Shown here one piece after another: positions 13,137 to 61,917 of a DNA stretch of 64,000 nucleotides. This DNA is from Dehalococcoidia bacterium (lineage in GTDB: Bacteria; Chloroflexota; Dehalococcoidia; JAUQQI01), in contig JBHOQU010000032.1 in NCBI GenBank assembly GCA_042408785.1, positions 26,798-90,797 on the forward strand, written 5' to 3'. A model generated the notes under the pieces. That model made no database searches, was not told where the DNA came from, and saw nothing but the letters and a program-made list of their open reading frames with translations. Position numbers and translations under genes: made by a program. Each line of letters starts with the position of its first letter. Position 1 is the first letter of the stretch.

Positions 13137-14258
13137 GTCCCCTTCGGGGCTGACATAGACCCGGGCCACCCGGGGCGTGAGCCGGGTAAGAAGCTCGTAG
13201 GGGATCGTTTCCGCCAGTTCGGCCAGCTCCTCCAGCCGGACCTCCTCATCGCCCTGGCGGCCCACCAGCACCACCTCATCCCCCACCCCTACCTTCGGCA
13301 GGCCGCTTACGTCCACGGTGAGCAGGTCCATAGAAACCCGGCCCACCAGCGGGCAACGCCGACCCCGGATAAGCACAAAGCCCCGGTTGGAAAGGTGACG
13401 GGGGTAGCCGTCGCCGTAGCCGCAGGCCACCAGGGCCACCCGCGTCGGCCGGGCTGCCACCCAGGTCCGGCCGTAGCCGACGCCCTCGCCCGGCCCGACC
13501 TCGTGGACCCGGACGACCCGGCTTTTGAGGGTGAGGGCCGGCCGGAGGGGAACGGTCCGGCCGACGTGCTTTGAGGGGTAGTAACCGTAGATTCCGAGGC
13601 CGGCCCGCACCAGGTCCAGCCGAAGCTCCGGCAGGTCCAGGGCCGCGGCGGTGTTGGCCGCATGCCGGAGGAACACCGGCGGAAGGCCGGCCAGAACCTC
13701 CCGGAGGAGGGCAAGCTGCCGGTAAGCGAAGCTTTTATCGGCCTCATCGGCCGTAGCCAGGTGGGTCCAGACGCCTTCGACCCGGAGTTGCGGGTAGCGG
13801 CTGAGGCACCGGATAAAAGGTCCGACTTCGGCCGGGGAGATACCGTAGCGGTGGAGGCCGGTGTCGACCTTCACGTGGACGGCCACCGGCCCCGACCCCG
13901 CCGCCCGGGCGAGGGCCTCGGCCAGCTCGAGGTGGCAGACGGTCGGGGTGAGCCGGGCCCGGACGACCTCGGGGGCAAGGGAGGGCAAGGTTGGGCCGAG
14001 GATGAGGATCGGGGCGTCGATGCCCTGGGCCCGTAACGCCAGGCCCTCTTCGGGCCGGGCCACGCACAGGCCCGCCGCCCCGTTTTCCAGGGCGGTCCGG
14101 GCCACGGGTTCAGCCCCGAGGCCGTAGCCGTCGGCCTTTACCACCGCAAAGAGGCGGGCGGGGTGGACCAGGCGGGCGAGGTTACGGGTGTTGGCGGCGA
14201 CAGCTTCGAGGTTAACTTCGGCCCAGACCAGGCGCCGGTTCAGGGGACCAGGGTCCAC
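13104..14258 (-). CDS. alr: Alanine racemase
   Basis: AVVKADGYGLG PLP-lysine motif and the overall Alr pattern including the C-terminal beta domain. Confidence 0.9.
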   Translation of the reverse strand: MDPGPLNRRLVWAEVNLEAVAANTRNLARLVHPARLFAVVKADGYGLGAEPVARTALENGAAGLCVARPEEGLALRAQGIDAPILILGPTLPSLAPEVVRARLTPTVCHLELAEALARAAGSGPVAVHVKVDTGLHRYGISPAEVGPFIRCLSRYPQLRVEGVWTHLATADEADKSFAYRQLALLREVLAGLPPVFLRHAANTAAALDLPELRLDLVRAGLGIYGYYPSKHVGRTVPLRPALTLKSRVVRVHEVGPGEGVGYGRTWVAARPTRVALVACGYGDGYPRHLSNRGFVLIRGRRCPLVGRVSMDLLTVDVSGLPKVGVGDEVVLVGRQGDEEVRLEELAELAETIPYELLTRLTPRVARVYVSPEGDLAEGVEQDLR

Positions 14259-14725
14259 TCCACCGGGAGCTGGTAACGGAGCACCCGCCGGACTGAGCCG
14301 TCCTCGGCCCGGACCCGAACCCGGCCGACCCGGCGGATTTCGGCGTAGGTGTTCTGAATCTGGACGATGCGGCGGGCGGTCAGGTTAAACAGAACAACCC
14401 CGGCCCGGGCCGGCCTGAGGCTGACCTCCCGGGTCACCTCGTCGACGACCCGGAAGACGGGCTGCTCCCGGGGGGAACTGCGGGCGAGGGCCTCGTGGAT
14501 CTGGCGGTAGTTGCTTGGGCTATTATGTTCATCGAAGACGGCCAGGCCGGCCTCAACATAATCCCGGAGCCAGGGGTAATACTCGCCGGCGAAGGCGAGG
14601 AACTGCCGGAGGTTATGGGGGTTTCGGGAGCAGGCCGCCACCAGGGCGGGGAGGGCATCACAGGGCGCCACGAAGCTTACGGTGCCGTCTGAATCCACTA
14701 CGGTGAAGCGCATGACGTCGTTCAT
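14240..14725 (-). CDS. Hypothetical protein of 161 aa with no recognisable family, co-oriented with and overlapping alr
   Basis: Clean ATG start (MNDVMRF) and a 19 nt overlap with the alr start. A candidate promoter lies just upstream. Confidence 0.5.
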   Translation of the reverse strand: MNDVMRFTVVDSDGTVSFVAPCDALPALVAACSRNPHNLRQFLAFAGEYYPWLRDYVEAGLAVFDEHNSPSNYRQIHEALARSSPREQPVFRVVDEVTREVSLRPARAGVVLFNLTARRIVQIQNTYAEIRRVGRVRVRAEDGSVRRVLRYQLPVEWTLVP

Positions 14726-14769: not shown

Positions 14770-14850
14770 AGGCGGGAGGGGACGGCCGGGCTTTTCAGTT
14801 TATTCGCCCAAGTGCTAGCAGTCAGTGGCTGGTTTATTAGTTGTATAGTT

Positions 14851-14864
14851 GCACGACCGTGCGC
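14851..14864. repeat. Palindrome-family copy A (GCACGACCGTGCGC)
   Basis: Imperfect copy of the GCACGGCCGTGC palindrome also present at 14996-15012 and 49401-49420. Confidence 0.5.
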
Positions 14865-14890
14865 TCTTATAGGGGGCCGGCTTCCGCGCC

Positions 14891-14977
14891 CTATTGCCAG
14901 GGCCGGAAAGGCCTGGGGGACCGCCAGGGGTTTGCCGTTTATTGCCGGTCTCATTGCCAGGCGGTGCCTGGCAATAG
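14891..14977. repeat. Cluster of ATTGCCAGG direct and inverted repeats forming alternative hairpins
   Basis: CTATTGCCAGG (14891-14901) and CATTGCCAGGC (14952-14962) are both complementary to GCCTGGCAATAG (14966-14977). A CCAGGGCC-GGAAA-GGCCTGG hairpin lies at 14898-14919 and a TTATTGCC repeat at 14939. Confidence 0.5.
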
Positions 14978-14995
14978 TCAGACGGGCCGTATGGG

Positions 14996-15012
14996 GTCAC
15001 GGCCGTGCGCAC
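14996..15012. repeat. Palindrome-family copy B (GTCACGGCCGTGCGCAC)
   Basis: Core CACGGCCGTG palindrome with GCG extension; related to 49401-49420. Confidence 0.5.
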
Positions 15013-15098
15013 CATAAACCATAAGTGGTAACCTGGTAGTAGCAGTGACAATAACCGGAGCGCGGTTGGCGGGCCGGATTGAGGCGCAGGATGTTGCG

Positions 15099-15172
15099 GC
15101 GCGCCCGGAGGGATTCGAACCCCCGACCCTCTGGTCCGAAGCCAGATGCTCTAGTCCGCTGAGCTACGGGCG
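15099..15172 (-). tRNA. tRNA-Arg (anticodon UCG)
   Basis: Reverse complement folds as a cloverleaf: acceptor GCGCCCG/CGGGCGC, D-arm GCTC..GAGC, anticodon stem TCTGG/CCAGA with loop CTTCGGA, T-arm GGGGG-TTCGAAT-CCCTC. CC but not A of CCA is encoded. Confidence 0.8.
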
Positions 15173-15183
15173 CAGGGGAGCGG

Positions 15184-15256
15184 GGTGGGTGATGGGATTC
15201 GAACCCACAACCTCCTGAGCCACAGTCAGGCGCTCTGCCGTTGAGCTACACCCACC
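15184..15256 (-). tRNA. tRNA-His (anticodon GUG) with encoded G-1 and C73 discriminator
   Basis: Reverse complement is G-GTGGGTG-TA-GCTC..GAGC-G-CCTGA-CTGTGGC-TCAGG-AGGTT-GTGGG-TTCGAAT-CCCAT-CACCCAC-C. Anticodon loop CTGTGGC gives GTG. It sits 11 nt upstream of tRNA-Arg on the same strand. Confidence 0.85.
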
Positions 15257-16226: not shown

Positions 16227-16331
16227 GACGGGCGGGCTTTGCGATTATCAATTGCCGGCAGCTGGCGGCTGGTTTAGGTGTCGGGACCCCCGGTCGTACA
16301 CGGAAGATAGCCGGAAAGCCCTGTCGGCCCC

Positions 16332-46795: not shown

Positions 46796-47590
46796 ATGAC
46801 CCTGCGCGTCCTGGTAACCAACGACGACGGCATCTACGCCCCCGGCCTCTGGGCCCTGGCCCAGGAGCTGGTCAGGGACTTCCGGGTCTACGTGGTCGCC
46901 CCCGACCGGGAGCAGAGCGCCATCGGGGCGGCCATAAGCCTTAACCACCCCATCCGGGTGAACCGCCTGCCGGCCATCATGAGCGGGGACCTGGAAGCCT
47001 ACTCGGTGGAGGGGACGCCGGGCGACTGCGTCATAATGGCCATCAACAGCCTGTTTAAAGACGGCATCGACTGCGTGGTTTCGGGCCTGAACGAGGGCTC
47101 CAACCTTGGCAACGACGTCCTCATCTCGGGAACAGTTGGGGCCGCCCTCCACGGCTACTTCCTCGGCCGGCCGGCCTTTGCCCTCTCGATAAACAGCCTC
47201 CGGCCCGAAAACGTCGAGCCTGGCGCCCGGCTGGCTCGCCTCCTCGTCCGGCTGGTGGCCCAGGGCCAGCTGCCCGAAAAGATTCTGCTCAACATAAACC
47301 TTCCAGACCTGCCCCTGGGGGCGATCCGGGGAATCGAGGTCACCTACCTGGCCCGGCGCAGCTACACCGACATTATCGAAGAGCACGTGGACCGCAAGGG
47401 CCGGAGCCTTTACTGGATAACCCGGGGCAAGCCCGTCTGGGAAGAGGAGGAGGGCAGCGACATCTGGGCCATCCGCCAGTCAAAGGTCTCCATAACCCCC
47501 CTCGAGGCCGATGTGGCCAGCCGGGAACACATCGACCTGCTGCGCCGGCTGGTCCCCGACCTCTTTTCGGGCCTGCTTAACCTGGACTGA
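46796..47590 (+). CDS. surE: 5'/3'-nucleotidase SurE
   Basis: MTLRVLVTNDDGIYAPGL N-terminal SurE signature. Confidence 0.9.
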   Translation: MTLRVLVTNDDGIYAPGLWALAQELVRDFRVYVVAPDREQSAIGAAISLNHPIRVNRLPAIMSGDLEAYSVEGTPGDCVIMAINSLFKDGIDCVVSGLNEGSNLGNDVLISGTVGAALHGYFLGRPAFALSINSLRPENVEPGARLARLLVRLVAQGQLPEKILLNINLPDLPLGAIRGIEVTYLARRSYTDIIEEHVDRKGRSLYWITRGKPVWEEEEGSDIWAIRQSKVSITPLEADVASREHIDLLRRLVPDLFSGLLNLD

Positions 47591-47596
47591 CCGGCG

Positions 47597-48355
47597 TCAG
47601 TCCAGGTCGCCGAAGTGGGCTAGGACGAGGGTGAGGGCGACGATGGCCGCCGTCTCGGCCCGGAGAATCCGGGGCCCAAGGCCCACCGGGATGATGTTGT
47701 GGCGGCGGGCAAGCTCCACCTCTTCCGGGGTAAAGCCGCCTTCGGGTCCGATAAAGAGGGCCACCGAATAGGGCCGGCGCACGCCGGCCCCCGGCCCGGT
47801 GGCCTCCGCCAGGGCGGCCCGCAGGGGCCGGACATCTCGCCCCTCGTAGGGGATAAAGGCCAGCTCGTGGACGGACCGGCAGGCCTCCTCGAAGGTAACA
47901 GGCTCGTGGATTTTCGGCACCTTTCCCCGGCGGGACTGCTCGGCGGCCTCGGTTACGATCCGCTGCCAGCGCTCAAACTTGCCCCGGGCCGTCGGGTCCG
48001 GCGGCTCGGCCACGCAGCGGGCCGTCACCATCGGCACAAACCCCACCGCCCCCACCTCGGTGCCCTTCTGCAGCAGCCAGTCGAAACGGTTGCCCTTAAG
48101 GAGGGCCTGGAAGAGGGTGACTTTAACCTTTGGCTCGGTCTCAACCAGCCGGCGGCGCTCCACCCGCCCGGCGGCCCCGTGCCGGTCGAGCCGCTCCAGG
48201 ACCACGTCGAATTCCCAGCCCGAATTGTCGAAGACCACCACCGAGTCACCCGCCGAGAGGCGCAGCACGTCCCGGAGCTGGTGGGCCTGGGTCGGGTCGA
48301 ACTCCACCAGGCGGCCCTTAATGCGCCCGGGCGGGACGAAGAACCGGTGGGTCAC
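47597..48355 (-). CDS. rsmE: 16S rRNA (uracil1498-N3)-methyltransferase RsmE
   Basis: THRFFVPPG start pattern and IGPEGGFTPEE SPOUT motif. Start moved to the GTG at V17 so it does not overlap prmA. Confidence 0.75.
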   Translation of the reverse strand: MTHRFFVPPGRIKGRLVEFDPTQAHQLRDVLRLSAGDSVVVFDNSGWEFDVVLERLDRHGAAGRVERRRLVETEPKVKVTLFQALLKGNRFDWLLQKGTEVGAVGFVPMVTARCVAEPPDPTARGKFERWQRIVTEAAEQSRRGKVPKIHEPVTFEEACRSVHELAFIPYEGRDVRPLRAALAEATGPGAGVRRPYSVALFIGPEGGFTPEEVELARRHNIIPVGLGPRILRAETAAIVALTLVLAHFGDLD

Positions 48356-48363
48356 CGCTTGCC

Positions 48364-49272
48364 TTAAGCCTCCCCGGGCCGGGTGAGCGCCAGCGCCGTC
48401 CATTCCCCGGCCGTCCGCCGGTCCAGGGGATGGAGGCCCAGGCCGGCGTAAAGGTCGGTCAGCTCGTCGGCCCGCCCGACCAGCAGGCCGGACATCACCA
48501 GCCGGCCGCCGGGGCCCACGGAGGGGGCCAGGGCCGGGGCCAGCTCCCGGAGAACCGGGGCGCTCAAGTTGGCCAGGATCAGGTCGAAGGGCCCGGCCGG
48601 GCCCTTGAGGGTGCCCCGGACGACCCTCACCCGGCCCGAAAGCCGGTTGAGGCGCACATTCGACCGGGCCGCCTTGACGGCCAGGGGGTCGATATCCAGG
48701 GCCAGGACGGAGCGGGCCCCGAGCCGGGCGGCGGCGATGGCCAGAATCCCGGAGCCGGTGCCCAGGTCCAGAACCGCCTCGCCGGGGCGGAGGAGTTCGG
48801 CCGCAAGGTGCAGGCAGAGCTGGGTGGTGGGGTGCAGGCCGGTCCCGAAGGCCAGGCCCGGGTCGATGAGCAGGAGGAGGCCGTCGGCCGGGACCGGGGC
48901 CTCGGCCCAGGGGGGTGCGATGATGAAGGGCCCGACCCGGTGGGGCTTAAAGTGCGCCTTCCAGGCGTGGGCCCAGTCCGCCTCGGCCAGGGTCCGAACT
49001 TCAGGCTCGGGAAATTGGGCCACCTGGCGCAGGTGCCAGAGGGCCCGGATAAGCCGGCCCAGGCGGCGCCGGCCAAGGGCGTTTTCGGGCAGATAAGCCC
49101 TGACCACCACCGGGGCGGTGGGGTCTATCTGATAGCCGTCGCCCTCGGGGTCGGGGCGGATGGGCTCCTCGATGGCCACCCCGCCGTGGCCGTAGCGGCC
49201 CATGACCTCGGCGATGGCGTCGGCGGCCTCCCGGCCGGCCGCCACGGAGACTTCCAGCCAGTTTGCGGTCAT
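48364..49272 (-). CDS. prmA: Ribosomal protein L11 methyltransferase
   Basis: Start at MTANWLEVSV; DLGTGSGILAIAAARLGA SAM-binding motif. The N-terminal extension to 49446 in the listed ORF is unsupported. Confidence 0.85.
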   Translation of the reverse strand: MTANWLEVSVAAGREAADAIAEVMGRYGHGGVAIEEPIRPDPEGDGYQIDPTAPVVVRAYLPENALGRRRLGRLIRALWHLRQVAQFPEPEVRTLAEADWAHAWKAHFKPHRVGPFIIAPPWAEAPVPADGLLLLIDPGLAFGTGLHPTTQLCLHLAAELLRPGEAVLDLGTGSGILAIAAARLGARSVLALDIDPLAVKAARSNVRLNRLSGRVRVVRGTLKGPAGPFDLILANLSAPVLRELAPALAPSVGPGGRLVMSGLLVGRADELTDLYAGLGLHPLDRRTAGEWTALALTRPGEA

Positions 49273-49400
49273 TTCAAGCGGGTTCCCAACAACTATTTTG
49301 GGGCGTCGCGGCCGGCCAGAACAAGCCCCCCGTTTGGCGGCCCCGCAGCCTTCGAGTTGTCCACTGAACTGCTGGCAGACAGTGGCCCATTTAGTCGCAT

Positions 49401-49420
49401 GGGCGCACGGCCGTGCGCCC
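49401..49420. repeat. Perfect 20 nt palindrome GGGCGCACGGCCGTGCGCCC (palindrome-family copy C) in the prmA/aspS divergent intergenic region
   Basis: Self-complementary over 20 nt. The core GCACGGCCGTGC recurs at 14851-14864 and 14996-15012. Confidence 0.55.
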
Positions 49421-49557
49421 CTACAGACTACCTGATCGCCCCCCAATAACCCTTAGGCCATAAAACTGGAAAGCCCTGCGTAAAGACCGTGGGCTTTCGG
49501 CTGATACGCAAGGATGCTAAGCTTAATATTGACACCCGTGGTAGGAGACGGAGGTCG

Positions 49558-51375
49558 ATGCTCAAATCCCACAGTTGCGGCGAGCTTCGCCCGGCCCACG
49601 TCGGCCAGGAGGTGACCCTGGCCGGCTGGGTCCACCGGCGCCGGGACCACGGCGGCCTCATCTTTATCGACCTGCGGGACCGCTCCGGCCTGGTCCAGGT
49701 GGTGGCCAACCCCCAGGTCGCCCCGGACGCCCACCGGACGGCCGACCTCTGCCGGGCCGAGTACGTGATTCTGGTGGGCGGCACGGTAAGCCGCCGGCCG
49801 CCGGGGACGGAAAACCCCAACCTGCCCACGGGCGAGGTAGAGGTGGTGGCCCGGACGCTCCGGATCCTTTCGGCGGCCCGGACCCCGCCCTTCCCCATCG
49901 CCGACGAGCAGTCCGTTGACGAGTACGTGCGGCTCAAATACCGCTACCTGGACCTGCGCCGGCCGAAGATGCAGGCCAACCTCCTGCTCCGCCACCGGGT
50001 CATCCAGTTCATCCGGGACTACCTGGACGCCCGGGGCTTCTTGGAGGTCGAGACGCCGATCCTGACTAAAAGCACCCCGGAGGGGGCGCGGGACTACCTG
50101 GTGCCCAGCCGGGTCCATCCCGGCAAGTTTTACGCCCTGCCCCAGTCGCCCCAGCAGCTCAAGCAGCTGCTCATGGTGGCCGGCTTTGAAAAGTACTTCC
50201 AGATCGCCCGCTGCTTCCGGGACGAGGACCTGCGGGCGGACCGCCAGCCCGAGTTCACCCAGCTCGACCTGGAGATGAGCTTCGTTGACCAGGACGACAT
50301 CTTAAACCTCATTGAAGCTTTAATCACCGAGCTGGTTCGGACCGTAACCCCCGAGTTTAAAATCCGGGTCCCGTTCCCCCGGCTCACCTTTCAGGAGGTT
50401 ATGGACCGCTACGGCACCGACCATGCCGACCTGCGCTTCGGCCTCGAGCTGGTGGATGTGACCGACATCCTGGCCGAGACCCAGTTCCAGGTCTTCCGCC
50501 AGGCCGTGGCCGCCGGCGGCCGGATAAAGGGGATCCGGGTGCCTGGTCAGGCCGGCATCAGCCGGCGGGAGGTGGAGGAGCTGGCCGCCTACGTCCGACC
50601 GTTCGGCCTTGGGGGTCTGGTAAGCGTGGCCGTGGAGCCCTTTACCGGCCGGGAAGGGCAGATCCGGGTTGGGGAGCTCGGCGTCCGGTCGCCGGTGGGC
50701 CGCCACCTCACCGAGGCCGAGTTTGCGGGCCTCATCGGCCGGTTCGGGGCCGAGGCCGGGGACCTGATCCTGCTGGGGGCCGGGCCTTACCCGGTAGTCT
50801 CCCGGGGCCTTGCCGAGCTGCGGGAGGAGCTGGGTCGCCGGCTGGGCCTGGCCGACCCGAACCTGCTGGTCTTCGCCTGGGTGGTGGACTTCCCGGCCTT
50901 TGAGTTTAAAGAGCAGGAGAACCGCTGGGATGCGGTCCACCACCCCTTCACCGCCCCCAGGGACGAAGACCTGCCCTACCTGCTCACCGACCCCGGCCGG
51001 GTCCGGGCCAAGCAGTACGACCTCATCTGCAACGGCCACGAGCTCGGGGGCGGAAGCATCCGCATCACCGACCCGGAGGTCCAGCGGCAGGTCTTCCAGG
51101 TGATGGGACATACCCGCGAGAGCATCGAGCGCCAGTTCGGCCACCTGCTCACCGCCTTTGAGTACGGCGTGCCGCCCCACGGCGGGATCGCCATTGGGCT
51201 GGACCGCCTGGTTGCCCTCCTGGCCCGGGAACCCACCATCCGGGAGGTTATCGCCTTCCCGAAGACCAAGGATGCGGTGGACCTGCTTTTCGGGGCCCCC
51301 TCGGAGGTGAGCCCGGAGCAACTCAAGGAGCTACACATCAAGGTGTGTCTGGAGGACTCAGGGCAACCACGATAA
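49558..51375 (+). CDS. aspS: Aspartate--tRNA ligase
   Basis: MLKSHSCGELRPAHVGQEVTLAGWVHRRRDHGGLIFIDLRD N-terminal OB fold; class II motifs FRDEDLRADRQPEFTQLD and GLDRLVAL; bacterial GAD insertion. ATG at 49558 with a GGAGG RBS. Confidence 0.93.
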   Translation: MLKSHSCGELRPAHVGQEVTLAGWVHRRRDHGGLIFIDLRDRSGLVQVVANPQVAPDAHRTADLCRAEYVILVGGTVSRRPPGTENPNLPTGEVEVVARTLRILSAARTPPFPIADEQSVDEYVRLKYRYLDLRRPKMQANLLLRHRVIQFIRDYLDARGFLEVETPILTKSTPEGARDYLVPSRVHPGKFYALPQSPQQLKQLLMVAGFEKYFQIARCFRDEDLRADRQPEFTQLDLEMSFVDQDDILNLIEALITELVRTVTPEFKIRVPFPRLTFQEVMDRYGTDHADLRFGLELVDVTDILAETQFQVFRQAVAAGGRIKGIRVPGQAGISRREVEELAAYVRPFGLGGLVSVAVEPFTGREGQIRVGELGVRSPVGRHLTEAEFAGLIGRFGAEAGDLILLGAGPYPVVSRGLAELREELGRRLGLADPNLLVFAWVVDFPAFEFKEQENRWDAVHHPFTAPRDEDLPYLLTDPGRVRAKQYDLICNGHELGGGSIRITDPEVQRQVFQVMGHTRESIERQFGHLLTAFEYGVPPHGGIAIGLDRLVALLAREPTIREVIAFPKTKDAVDLLFGAPSEVSPEQLKELHIKVCLEDSGQPR

Positions 51376-58977: not shown

Positions 58978-60390
58978 ATGGGCCTTAACAGGATCCCGGT
59001 TATCGGCGCGGCCAAGGCCCTGCGGAACACGGCCCGGCTCCTGCGCCTGGGCGGGGGTACGGCCCTTCCCGGCCTGGTTGTGGAGGCCGTCGCCCCCAAC
59101 TACCTGGACGAGTGGACCCAGCAGCTCACCGGCGGGATCATCCTCGTAAGCGGCACCAACGGCAAGACCACCACCGTTCGGATGACGGCCGAGATTCTGC
59201 TGCGGGCTGGCTACGAGCCGGTCTCCAACCGGGCCGGGTCGAACCTGCTCCGGGGCATCCTGAGCGCCCTGGTGGAGCGCTCCGACTGGCAGGGCCGCCT
59301 TGTGCTGGGGGGGCGCGGGGTGGGCCTTTTCGAGGTGGATGAGGGCACCCTCCCCCAGATGCTGGGCCGGCTCCGGCCCCACGTGGTGGTTTTGACCAAC
59401 CTTTTCCGGGACCAGCTCGACCGCTACGGGGAGGTCGAGGCCCTGGCCCGGGCCTGGCGGCGGGTGCTGGCGGAAACGCCGCCGGAGGTCCTAATCGCAA
59501 ACGCCGACGACCCGAACCTGGCCGCCCTGGCCGAGGAGTTTCCCAAAGATGTGGTCCTTTTCGGCCTGGAAAGTTCCCCCTTTGCCCGGGACCAGCTTCC
59601 CCACGCCGCCGACGCCCGCTTCTGCCCCCGGTGTAACGGCCCACTTAAATACGAGGTGGTCTATTACAGCCACCTGGGCAAATACCGGTGTCCCGACTGC
59701 GGCTGGGAAAGGCCAGTGCCCGACATCGTCGGGGAAATCGTCCGAACCCAGGGGGTCGAAAGCCTCGGACTCTTGGTCCAATTTGGGGGCGAGCCCTTCG
59801 AGGTTGACCTGCCGGTCGGGGGCACGTATAATGCCTACAACGCCCTGGCCGCCACGGCCGTGGCCTACGCCTACCGGGTTCCGGCCAGGCTGGTCCGGCA
59901 GGGGCTGGGGGCGTTCCAGCCGGCCTTCGGCCGCCAGCAGGTGGTGGTCTTTAACCGCCGCCGGCTTGTAACAATCCTGGTTAAAAACCCGGCCGGCTTT
60001 AACGAGGCCATAAACCTGATCCTTTCGGACGGCCGGGACGAGCCTAAAAACTTGTTAATCATCCTCAACGACCGGGTAAACGACGGGAGGGATATCTCCT
60101 GGGTCTGGGACGTGGATTTCGACCTGCTCCGGGGGCGGGTGGGCCTGGTGGTTGCTTCGGGCCTTCGGGCTGCCGAGATGGCCCTCCGGCTTAAATACGC
60201 CGAAGTTGCCGGCACCGCCGACTCTCCCGAGCCCATCGTCGAACCCGACATCCGCCGGGCCCTGGACATCGCCGTTGAGAAGACCCGGCCCGGCTCGACC
60301 CTTTACATCTTGCCGACTTATACGGCCCTGCTCGACCTGCAGCGAATTCTGGCCCGCCGCGGGCTTACCCGGCCTTACTGGGAGGCCTGA
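58978..60390 (+). CDS. murT: Lipid II isoglutaminyl synthase, Mur-ligase-family subunit MurT
   Basis: Mur ligase P-loop ILVSGTNGKTTT, Cys4 ribbon CPRC...CPDC and a C-terminal DUF1727-like domain. Followed directly by gatD. Confidence 0.85.
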   Translation: MGLNRIPVIGAAKALRNTARLLRLGGGTALPGLVVEAVAPNYLDEWTQQLTGGIILVSGTNGKTTTVRMTAEILLRAGYEPVSNRAGSNLLRGILSALVERSDWQGRLVLGGRGVGLFEVDEGTLPQMLGRLRPHVVVLTNLFRDQLDRYGEVEALARAWRRVLAETPPEVLIANADDPNLAALAEEFPKDVVLFGLESSPFARDQLPHAADARFCPRCNGPLKYEVVYYSHLGKYRCPDCGWERPVPDIVGEIVRTQGVESLGLLVQFGGEPFEVDLPVGGTYNAYNALAATAVAYAYRVPARLVRQGLGAFQPAFGRQQVVVFNRRRLVTILVKNPAGFNEAINLILSDGRDEPKNLLIILNDRVNDGRDISWVWDVDFDLLRGRVGLVVASGLRAAEMALRLKYAEVAGTADSPEPIVEPDIRRALDIAVEKTRPGSTLYILPTYTALLDLQRILARRGLTRPYWEA

Positions 60391-61884: not shown

Positions 61885-61917
61885 CAAAAACTGGGGCAGG
61901 CTTTAAGCCTGCCCCAG
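61885..61917 (-). terminator. Rho-independent terminator hairpin (bidirectional-capable) between convergent tauE-like and nrdJ
   Basis: Perfect 11 bp inverted repeat CTGGGGCAGGC-TTTAA-GCCTGCCCCAG at 61891-61917. A CAAAAA run at 61885-61890 gives a U-run after the hairpin on the minus strand. Confidence 0.6.

Follow-up and report, generated by a model that had tools for sequence, protein, structure and literature searches.

In the window, by which we mean the whole 64,000-nt stretch of Dehalococcoidia DNA analysed here, a perfect 20-nt palindrome between two divergent genes and two closely related palindromes in a distant intergenic region raise the question of what such a family of inverted repeats represents. 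Two answers had been offered in the first-pass annotation, namely the operator of an uncharacterised dimeric regulator acting on translation-related genes, or a small REP-like repeated element. The second of these is supported by the present analysis: a 28-nt hairpin with GTAG/CTAC feet recurs in many genomes and is linked to RAYT-like genes. Comparison of sequences suggests that the window palindromes are very probably copies of this GTAG-tagged, double-foot REP, of which the one between prmA and aspS (copy C) would be nearly intact and the other two (copies A and B) decayed relics. Because the hairpin is of a known type and is found in many other phyla as well, we regard it as an ordinary repeat and not as a new gene-control site.

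Sequence and gene context of the palindromes

On direct re-reading of the window, the sequences and coordinates claimed for the three palindromes were found to be exact. GGGCGCACGGCCGTGCGCCC at 49401-49420 (copy C) is self-complementary over all its 20 nt, while the hairpin cores of copies A and B are TTGCACGACCGTGCGCTC (14849-14866) and GTCACGGCCGTGCGCAC (14996-15012), respectively. The flanks said to be common to copies B and C, ATGGG on the left and CC..TA on the right, are also real, and the sequence common to all three copies can be written as TA-N6-CACGG|YCGTGC. The 10-mer CACGRCCGTG has seven strand matches in the window against 0.38 expected, a number reached in none of 100 shuffles, and a looser 12-mer with up to two mismatches is not enriched there (11 matches vs 9.1 expected). 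Perfect 20-nt palindromes are not very rare in the window (67% G+C), with two seen against 0.37 expected, and perfect stems of at least 10 bp were observed eight times against 1.6 expected; the signal of the window is therefore carried by the recurrence of the core together with the family matches, not by the palindrome alone. The motif had been described as confined to two promoter regions. Copies A, B and C are indeed all intergenic, but a fourth core, CACGGCCGTG, is present at 59853 within a 470-aa MurT-like ORF; it has no flanks in common with the three copies and is treated as a chance occurrence.

Other hairpins were noticed in the window in passing. A 13-bp perfect stem at 61891-61917, CTGGGGCAGGCTT-T-AAGCCTGCCCCAG, is accompanied on the minus strand by a T-run and is likely a terminator, and a perfect hairpin with a 12-bp stem lies at 47580-47607 between the convergent ORFs 46796-47590 and 47597-48403.

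The gene context of copy C is as originally claimed. PrmA (48367-49272, minus strand), with an RsmE-type methyltransferase after it, and AspS (plus strand, starting at 49558) are divergent, and copy C is situated in the region between them. Two blocks at the edges of this region are nearly unchanged in those relatives (87-95%) that cover them, one adjoining prmA at 49273-49345 (GGGGGGCTTGT.C.GGCCGGCCGCGAC.C.CCAAAATAGTTG.TGGGAACC) and one adjoining aspS at 49520-49557 (AAGCTTAATATTGACACC..TGGTAGGAGACG), and they are probably the real control regions of the two genes. The upstream region of aspS gave no T-box.

Copies A and B lie 146 nt apart in the 372-nt spacer that separates tRNA-Arg and tRNA-His (15098-15255, minus strand) from the gene of a 161-aa hypothetical protein overlapping alr, copy B being about 80-110 nt past the 3' end of tRNA-Arg. 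Both had been placed in the leader upstream of this hypothetical-alr operon, next to the tRNA genes. The neighbouring genes were correctly named, but the copies are not in the leader, because a strong promoter-like site belonging to the operon, TTGACA-18-TAGACT, is located at 14769-14740, and this predicted promoter is downstream of both. Hairpins A and C are found about 77-97 nt upstream of the predicted -35 of the hypothetical-alr operon and of a tentative prmA -35; the latter, with its -10, was read by eye from the conserved block, agrees with the consensus at 7 of 12 positions and belongs to a site that the promoter scan did not report.

The 161-aa protein itself (14240-14725, minus strand) falls into no Pfam family and has more than 1000 homologues (E <= 1e-10), and all those carrying a source name are from Chloroflexota. 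The end of its gene overlaps alr in the window; in more distant relatives the gene comes after a Zincin_2 gene and before an Orn/DAP decarboxylase-type gene, with no tRNAs upstream, and in a 90% relative the contig covers just 48 nt upstream of it. Repeats of another kind were seen between copies A and B. The spacer (14893-14975) contains a second small repeat, ATTGCCAGG, three times (at 14895, at 14953 and inverted at 14967), as well as a perfect 10-bp hairpin, ATTGCCAGGC-GGT-GCCTGGCAAT, at 14953-14975. Motifs resembling TTTATTGCCGG and TTTATTCGCC are present at 14937 and 14799, and the spacer on the whole looks like a mosaic of short repeats.

A 28-nt hairpin family in many genomes

A scan with TANGRGSKCACGGYCGTGC over one genome per species, covering 185,579 species, yielded at least 118 loci. 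At many of them the pattern matched on both strands with an offset of 7 nt and must therefore belong to a longer palindrome, the consensus of which is GTAG-GGGCGCACGG-CCGTGCGCCC-CTAC. The perfect 28-mer, GTAGGGGCGCACGGCCGTGCGCCCCTAC, is present in at least 52 copies at no fewer than 50 of the 118 loci listed, against a chance expectation far below 1. Its edges are sharp: of 53 cases among the matches listed, 52 have G...C as the bases just outside the 26-nt core, and the flanks of the listed 28-mers are unrelated to each other, with complementarity at 3.17 of 12 positions compared with 3.0 by chance. We also considered insertion of the 28-mer into pre-existing palindromes and rejected it, as the stem is extended in 3 of 52 listed copies, which is the chance level overall. 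Slightly more than half of the listed perfect 28-mers (52%) are outside any ORF of at least 100 aa, vs 10% for random positions drawn from those loci. Near listed 28-mer copies, variants were observed in which the feet are unchanged and the stem differs. The remaining matches to the pattern, mostly in Actinobacteria, are without the second arm and look like chance in G+C-rich coding sequence.

The hosts among the matches listed are mostly Chloroflexota (Anaerolineae, Dehalococcoidia, Chloroflexia and Caldilineae), so that the phylum with the most listed matches is that of the source genome, whose PrmA has homologues at 88% identity that are named as Chloroflexota. At least eight other phyla are represented as well, including Acidobacteriota, Omnitrophota, Nitrospinota, Gemmatimonadota, Thermotogae, Deltaproteobacteria, Tectomicrobia and Cyanobacteria. 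Single metagenome-assembled genomes (MAGs) can hold several copies, for instance at five or more loci of OY762444.1 and on at least seven contigs of Chloroflexia Co_metawrap_852. Of 2.9 million viral contigs, one carries the 28-mer. Neither the exact 28-mer nor its core sequence was found in the searchable literature.

Certain copies deserve separate mention. Perfect 28-mers are contained in long ORFs with real Pfam domains at L023:5928-5955 (NACHT/TPR), L093:5041-5068 (TPR) and L014:779-806 (TIR plus FGE-sulfatase); these look like in-frame REP insertions into genuine genes. REP dimers were seen at L048:3411-3490, L073 and L078, from Acidobacteriota and an unclassified MAG, where a GTAG-footed and a CTAC-footed hairpin are about 29-33 nt apart. 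The second unit of these dimers is the one-base variant GGGCGCACAGCCGTGCGCCC, and the arrangement resembles a REPIN.

Association with RAYT-like transposase genes

When the ORFs within 2.5 kb of the hairpin were clustered across 80 loci among the matches listed, one family alone recurred in more than four of them, namely Y1_Tnp (PF01797). The best NCBIfam match of these neighbours is NF047646, the REP-associated tyrosine transposase, at E values of about 1e-16 to 1e-19, a match that is under the equivalog cutoff and split over two stretches. The RAYT-like proteins carry both the HUH motif, as MPNH(F/L/I)HGI, and the tyrosine motif, as WQRNY(Y/W)E.

In four RAYT-like ORFs from different phyla the 28-mer lies within the gene itself (L062:1617-1644, L077:5899-5926, L037:262-289 and L074:2101-2128). 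It is read in one and the same frame in all four, GTA GGG GCG CAC GGC CGT GCG CCC CTA, giving the peptide VGAHGRAPL, and the segment occupies codons 99-116, between the HUH and tyrosine motifs. The 28-mer is 100% identical in the four genes, as against 35-55% identity of the surrounding gene DNA. In L062, three hairpin-coded segments (VGATGQSPL, EASGRSPL and VGAHGRAPL) follow each other in tandem. At L038 the hairpins adjoin a RAYT fragment; most dispersed copies have flanks without similarity to RAYT genes and are solo hairpins, not remnants of the gene. A tblastn search of the 64-kb window gave no RAYT-like gene. A cognate RAYT is presumably encoded in the source genome, or was so in the past.

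How such a unit could move is suggested by published work on TnpA_REP of E. coli, as cited in PMC6006769 and PMC3479197. By analogy with that system, the hairpin would form on single-stranded DNA, and the RAYT, an HUH-Y1 tyrosine transposase, would bind the stem, read the GTAG foot and cut and rejoin the strand, whereby the 28-nt unit could be spread or removed. Mobilisation of the window copies is inferred from this E. coli model. Going one step further, a "universal" REP can be envisaged, in which GTAGGGGCGCACGGCCGTGCGCCCCTAC is kept base-identical in at least nine phyla by an in-frame master copy in its own RAYT gene. Transposase and substrate would then be passed on horizontally as a pair, with the copy inside the gene as the source of the dispersed ones. 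We offer this extension tentatively and consider it rather unlikely.

The window copies as probable members of the family

Copy C, taken as the 28-nt unit 49397-49424 on the minus strand, reads GTAG-GGGCGCACGG|CCGTGCGCCC-ATGC, with 26 of its 28 positions as in the family consensus GTAGGGGCGCACGGCCGTGCGCCCCTAC; 24 of these are contiguous and include GTAG on the minus strand. One foot is thus intact, with GTAG directly before GGGCGCACGG (the plus strand ends in CTAC), and the other is mutated to GCAT. Its 10-bp stem at 49401-49420, which is the perfect 20-nt palindrome initially reported, has three G-C pairs at the bottom, and the hairpin formed by GGGCGCACGG and CCGTGCGCCC folds at -20.2 kcal/mol (z = -3.2). 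Copy A (14843-14870, minus strand) matches the consensus at 20 of 28 positions, has the foot GTAT/TTAT and folds at -5.1 kcal/mol (z = -0.9), no more stably than shuffled sequence. Copy B (14989-15016, no strand assigned) matches at 21 of 28, has the foot GTAT, is homologous in its hairpin part only and likewise folds no better than shuffled sequence (z = -0.2). Because only 20-21 of 28 consensus positions match, copies A and B are assigned to the family by similarity alone, as decayed members. A single long hairpin of the MITE or REPIN kind made of A and B together was examined and rejected; the two are 146 nt apart, and the 291-nt region folds at z = -1.3, like shuffled sequence.

The orthologous prmA-aspS region of relatives is informative about the history of copy C. 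The relative with 95% PrmA identity (L195) has copy C at the same position; there GCCG stands in place of GTAG, and a single base of the stem is altered without compensation. Four relatives with 87-88% PrmA identity (L184, L185, L186 and L196) have neither hairpin C nor the 17-nt motif beside it (see below), while the roughly 70 nt next to prmA are nearly unchanged in all four and the roughly 35 nt next to aspS are kept in L184-L186, the contig of L196 ending before that block. The middle of the spacer is not alignable across relatives, and the edge of the insertion on the aspS side is not cleanly definable. Presence in some relatives and absence from others at an orthologous site is the insertional behaviour known of REPs, and, judged from these alignments, the pattern is that of an inserted, neutrally decaying repeat and not of a conserved operator. 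Some 170 kb of sequence, taken from relatives and from contigs of the same strain, contained no further copies, and a high copy number in this lineage is thus not supported.

It can be presumed from the above that the window copies would be passengers in non-conserved intergenic spacer, drifting neutrally and exerting no operator action. Copy C would occupy such a place between the promoter-proximal blocks of the divergent prmA and aspS, and copies A and B between the tRNA-Arg gene and the hypothetical-alr promoter.

A 17-nt motif beside copies A and C

The plain REP model does not account for one feature, a 17-nt motif that is present beside both A and C. It reads GCCACTGTCTGCCAGCA at 49370-49386 (minus strand), 14 nt from hairpin C, and GCCACTGACTGCTAGCA at 14813-14829 (minus strand), next to copy A, the two sites being paralogous. 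The shared motif, GCCACTGNCTGCYAGCA, stands 14-22 nt from hairpins A and C in the same orientation; in extended form the two sites match at 17 of 20 positions (p ~0.0005), and they are the only two exact sites in the window. Because this motif is shared besides the hairpin, A and C are, in this lineage, paralogous over segments of about 70-90 nt, which may stem from a local composite repeat or from co-option by the host (see below). A common element of about 70 nt in all three copies was tried and given up, since a shuffle test left tail similarity between A and C only, with B sharing the hairpin only. The distance to the predicted hypothetical-alr -35 downstream is 43 nt for motif A, and that to the weak, tentative prmA -35 is 45 nt for motif C. 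Hairpin C and the motif are absent as one unit from the 87-88% relatives; between the window and L195, the motif differs at 1 of 37 positions, compared with about five changes in the hairpin part.

Elsewhere the motif does not go along with the 28-mer, one real case (L014) being seen among 166 flanks vs a null rate of 1.2%. Searched for in metagenomes, the composite CACGGYCGTGC-N15-30-CCACTGNCTGC had 63 matches, all without the second arm and by eye like chance in G+C-rich sequence, so that further composite copies did not emerge. Reading TGGCAG-N-TGGC in the tail as a sigma-54 site was rejected by eye, the GG/GC spacing being off by one in C and the GG missing in A. Two lesser observations concern the same surroundings. 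GGGCTTTYCAGTTTWT occurs near copy A (14788-14803, plus strand) and near copy C (49461-49476, minus strand), on opposite sides of the hairpins and in opposite orientation, and its pattern with up to three mismatches has four matches vs 0.92 expected. A weak profile match (E = 0.07-0.4) to the tail of the element (…CTAAACCAGCCGCCAGCTGCCGG…) at 16243-16300 on the minus strand, in the spacer that separates a 278-aa ORF from a convergent gene of the histone-deacetylase family, is probably chance.

Alternative readings

The perfect 20-nt palindrome, the position of the copies in two intergenic regions near gene starts and the enrichment of the core 10-mer in the window would all suit the operator of an uncharacterised dimeric transcription factor co-regulating translation-related genes, as had been suggested. 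However, such a site is not conserved at the orthologous prmA-aspS locus, being absent from the 87-88% relatives, and its changes in L195 are uncompensated; dyad symmetry is lost in copies A and B, no regulator gene is adjacent, and the distance of about 77-97 nt from the -35s puts the site well upstream of the predicted promoter hexamers and not over the promoter. Moreover, the identical 28-mer is found across at least nine phyla in surroundings unrelated to each other, in some cases within coding regions, with the transposase as the sole recurrent neighbour among the matches listed. The operator is not supported by these observations, and we hold it to be very improbable. We give hardly any credence to a structured RNA, whether as a leader, as a small RNA or, after tRNA-Arg, as a hairpin for termination or processing. 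Copy C would form a stable hairpin as RNA, copy B does follow a tRNA gene, and many REPs elsewhere are transcribed as 3' stabilisers (PMC3733652). Nevertheless, the 15 release of Rfam at its gathering threshold returned only the two tRNAs from both regions and nothing credible at E up to 10, none of the three hairpins is followed by a T-run, and the folds of A and B resemble those of shuffled sequence, as does the whole A-B region (z = -1.3). Copy C, in addition, lies between divergent genes and upstream of both conserved promoter-proximal blocks, and the changes in L195 break pairs without compensation.

A further reading accepts the REP origin and supposes that the host has recruited the composite of hairpin and GCCACTGNCTGCYAGCA (the GCCACTG motif) as an upstream module of the hypothetical-alr and prmA promoters, with a nucleoid-associated protein, gyrase or an activator as candidate binders. 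It draws on the motif that A and C share at 17 of 20 positions (p ~0.0005), on the like orientation and like distances of motif (43 and 45 nt) and hairpins (about 77-97 nt) from the predicted or tentative -35s, and on the contrast between a nearly unchanged motif and a changing hairpin in the 95% relative; E. coli REP/BIME elements, moreover, bind IHF and gyrase according to work cited in PMC3733652 and PMC6006769. Yet the whole composite is missing from the 87-88% relatives, in which the genes and the promoter-proximal sequence are kept, the prmA -35/-10 is a weak consensus match that the promoter scan left unreported, and the motif shows no linkage to the hairpin elsewhere beyond the single L014 case in 166 flanks. 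With two instances to compare, the agreement in spacing within short spacers could be coincidence. Co-option by the host therefore appears improbable to us, and the preferred reading is still that of decayed REP copies.

Implications and comparison with known REP systems

In the annotation of the window, REP-like repeat is the label that the palindromes should carry; no new regulon or operator emerges, and the outcome is to that extent mainly negative. As a by-product, a concrete consensus is obtained for a REP of RAYT group 4, or TnpA_REP subclass 2.4, which does not vary between Chloroflexota, Acidobacteriota, Nitrospinota, Omnitrophota, Cyanobacteria and other phyla and is found in frame in its own transposase gene. 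This consensus could be used to mask spurious short ORFs (peptides of the VGAHGRAPL type), to flag REP insertions in real genes, and to probe the co-evolution and inter-phylum spread of REP and RAYT specificity. A REP that is identical across phyla and in frame in its own transposase is the only part that might merit follow-up.

The closest known system is TnpA_REP subclass 2.4 of Quentin 2018 (PMC6006769), equivalent to RAYT group 4, with double-foot REPs that have 5' GT[AG]G and 3' C[TC]AC feet, three G-C pairs at the bottom of the stem, and copies in frame in tnpA_REP between HuH and Y, a phenomenon thus already known in general terms. The patchy spread of this subclass over several phyla was attributed to horizontal transfer (PMC6006769). 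According to Bertels 2017 (PMC5581495), Cyanobacteria, Chlorobia and Caldilineae often carry RAYT group 4, and its associated 16-mers are of low copy number, with only about 14 occurrences. The 28-mer family resembles this type in its 5' GTAG and 3' CTAC feet, in its long G+C-rich stem with the three bottom G-C pairs, in its patchy multi-phylum spread including Chloroflexota, and in its low to moderate copy number. Because the feet, the stem bottom, the in-frame RAYT copies and the spread all match the description of Quentin 2018, the 28-mer can be assigned to the subclass 2.4 REP type. Unlike typical members, the window copies are partly decayed, C having one intact foot and A and B having GTAT feet and broken stems; copies A and C also carry the extra, lineage-specific 17-nt motif, and the window is without a RAYT gene.

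The GTAG-tagged REPs defined by Di Nocera 2013 (PMC3733652), some of them from Chloroflexi, are alike in their terminal GTAG at the foot of a 20-40 nt palindrome, in their extragenic location, and in occasional opposite-orientation dimers and occasional intragenic copies, the latter being noted in that study too. In most of those families GTAG is unpaired and at one end only, whereas the consensus of the present family is tagged at both ends. Between divergent genes, where copy C sits, is the least usual REP position (PMC3733652). GTAG-23 of Thermomicrobium roseum (Chloroflexi), compared here by its description, forms large blocks, in contrast to the single or loosely paired (146 nt) copies of the window. 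With E. coli REP/BIME (TnpA_REP, RayT) and Pseudomonas REPINs, the family shares a hairpin with a GTAG guide, an HUH-Y1 enzyme, and a non-autonomous, intergenic way of life. Those E. coli and Pseudomonas REPs are lineage-specific, number in the hundreds of copies and usually lie downstream of genes, whereas the 28-mer is identical across phyla.
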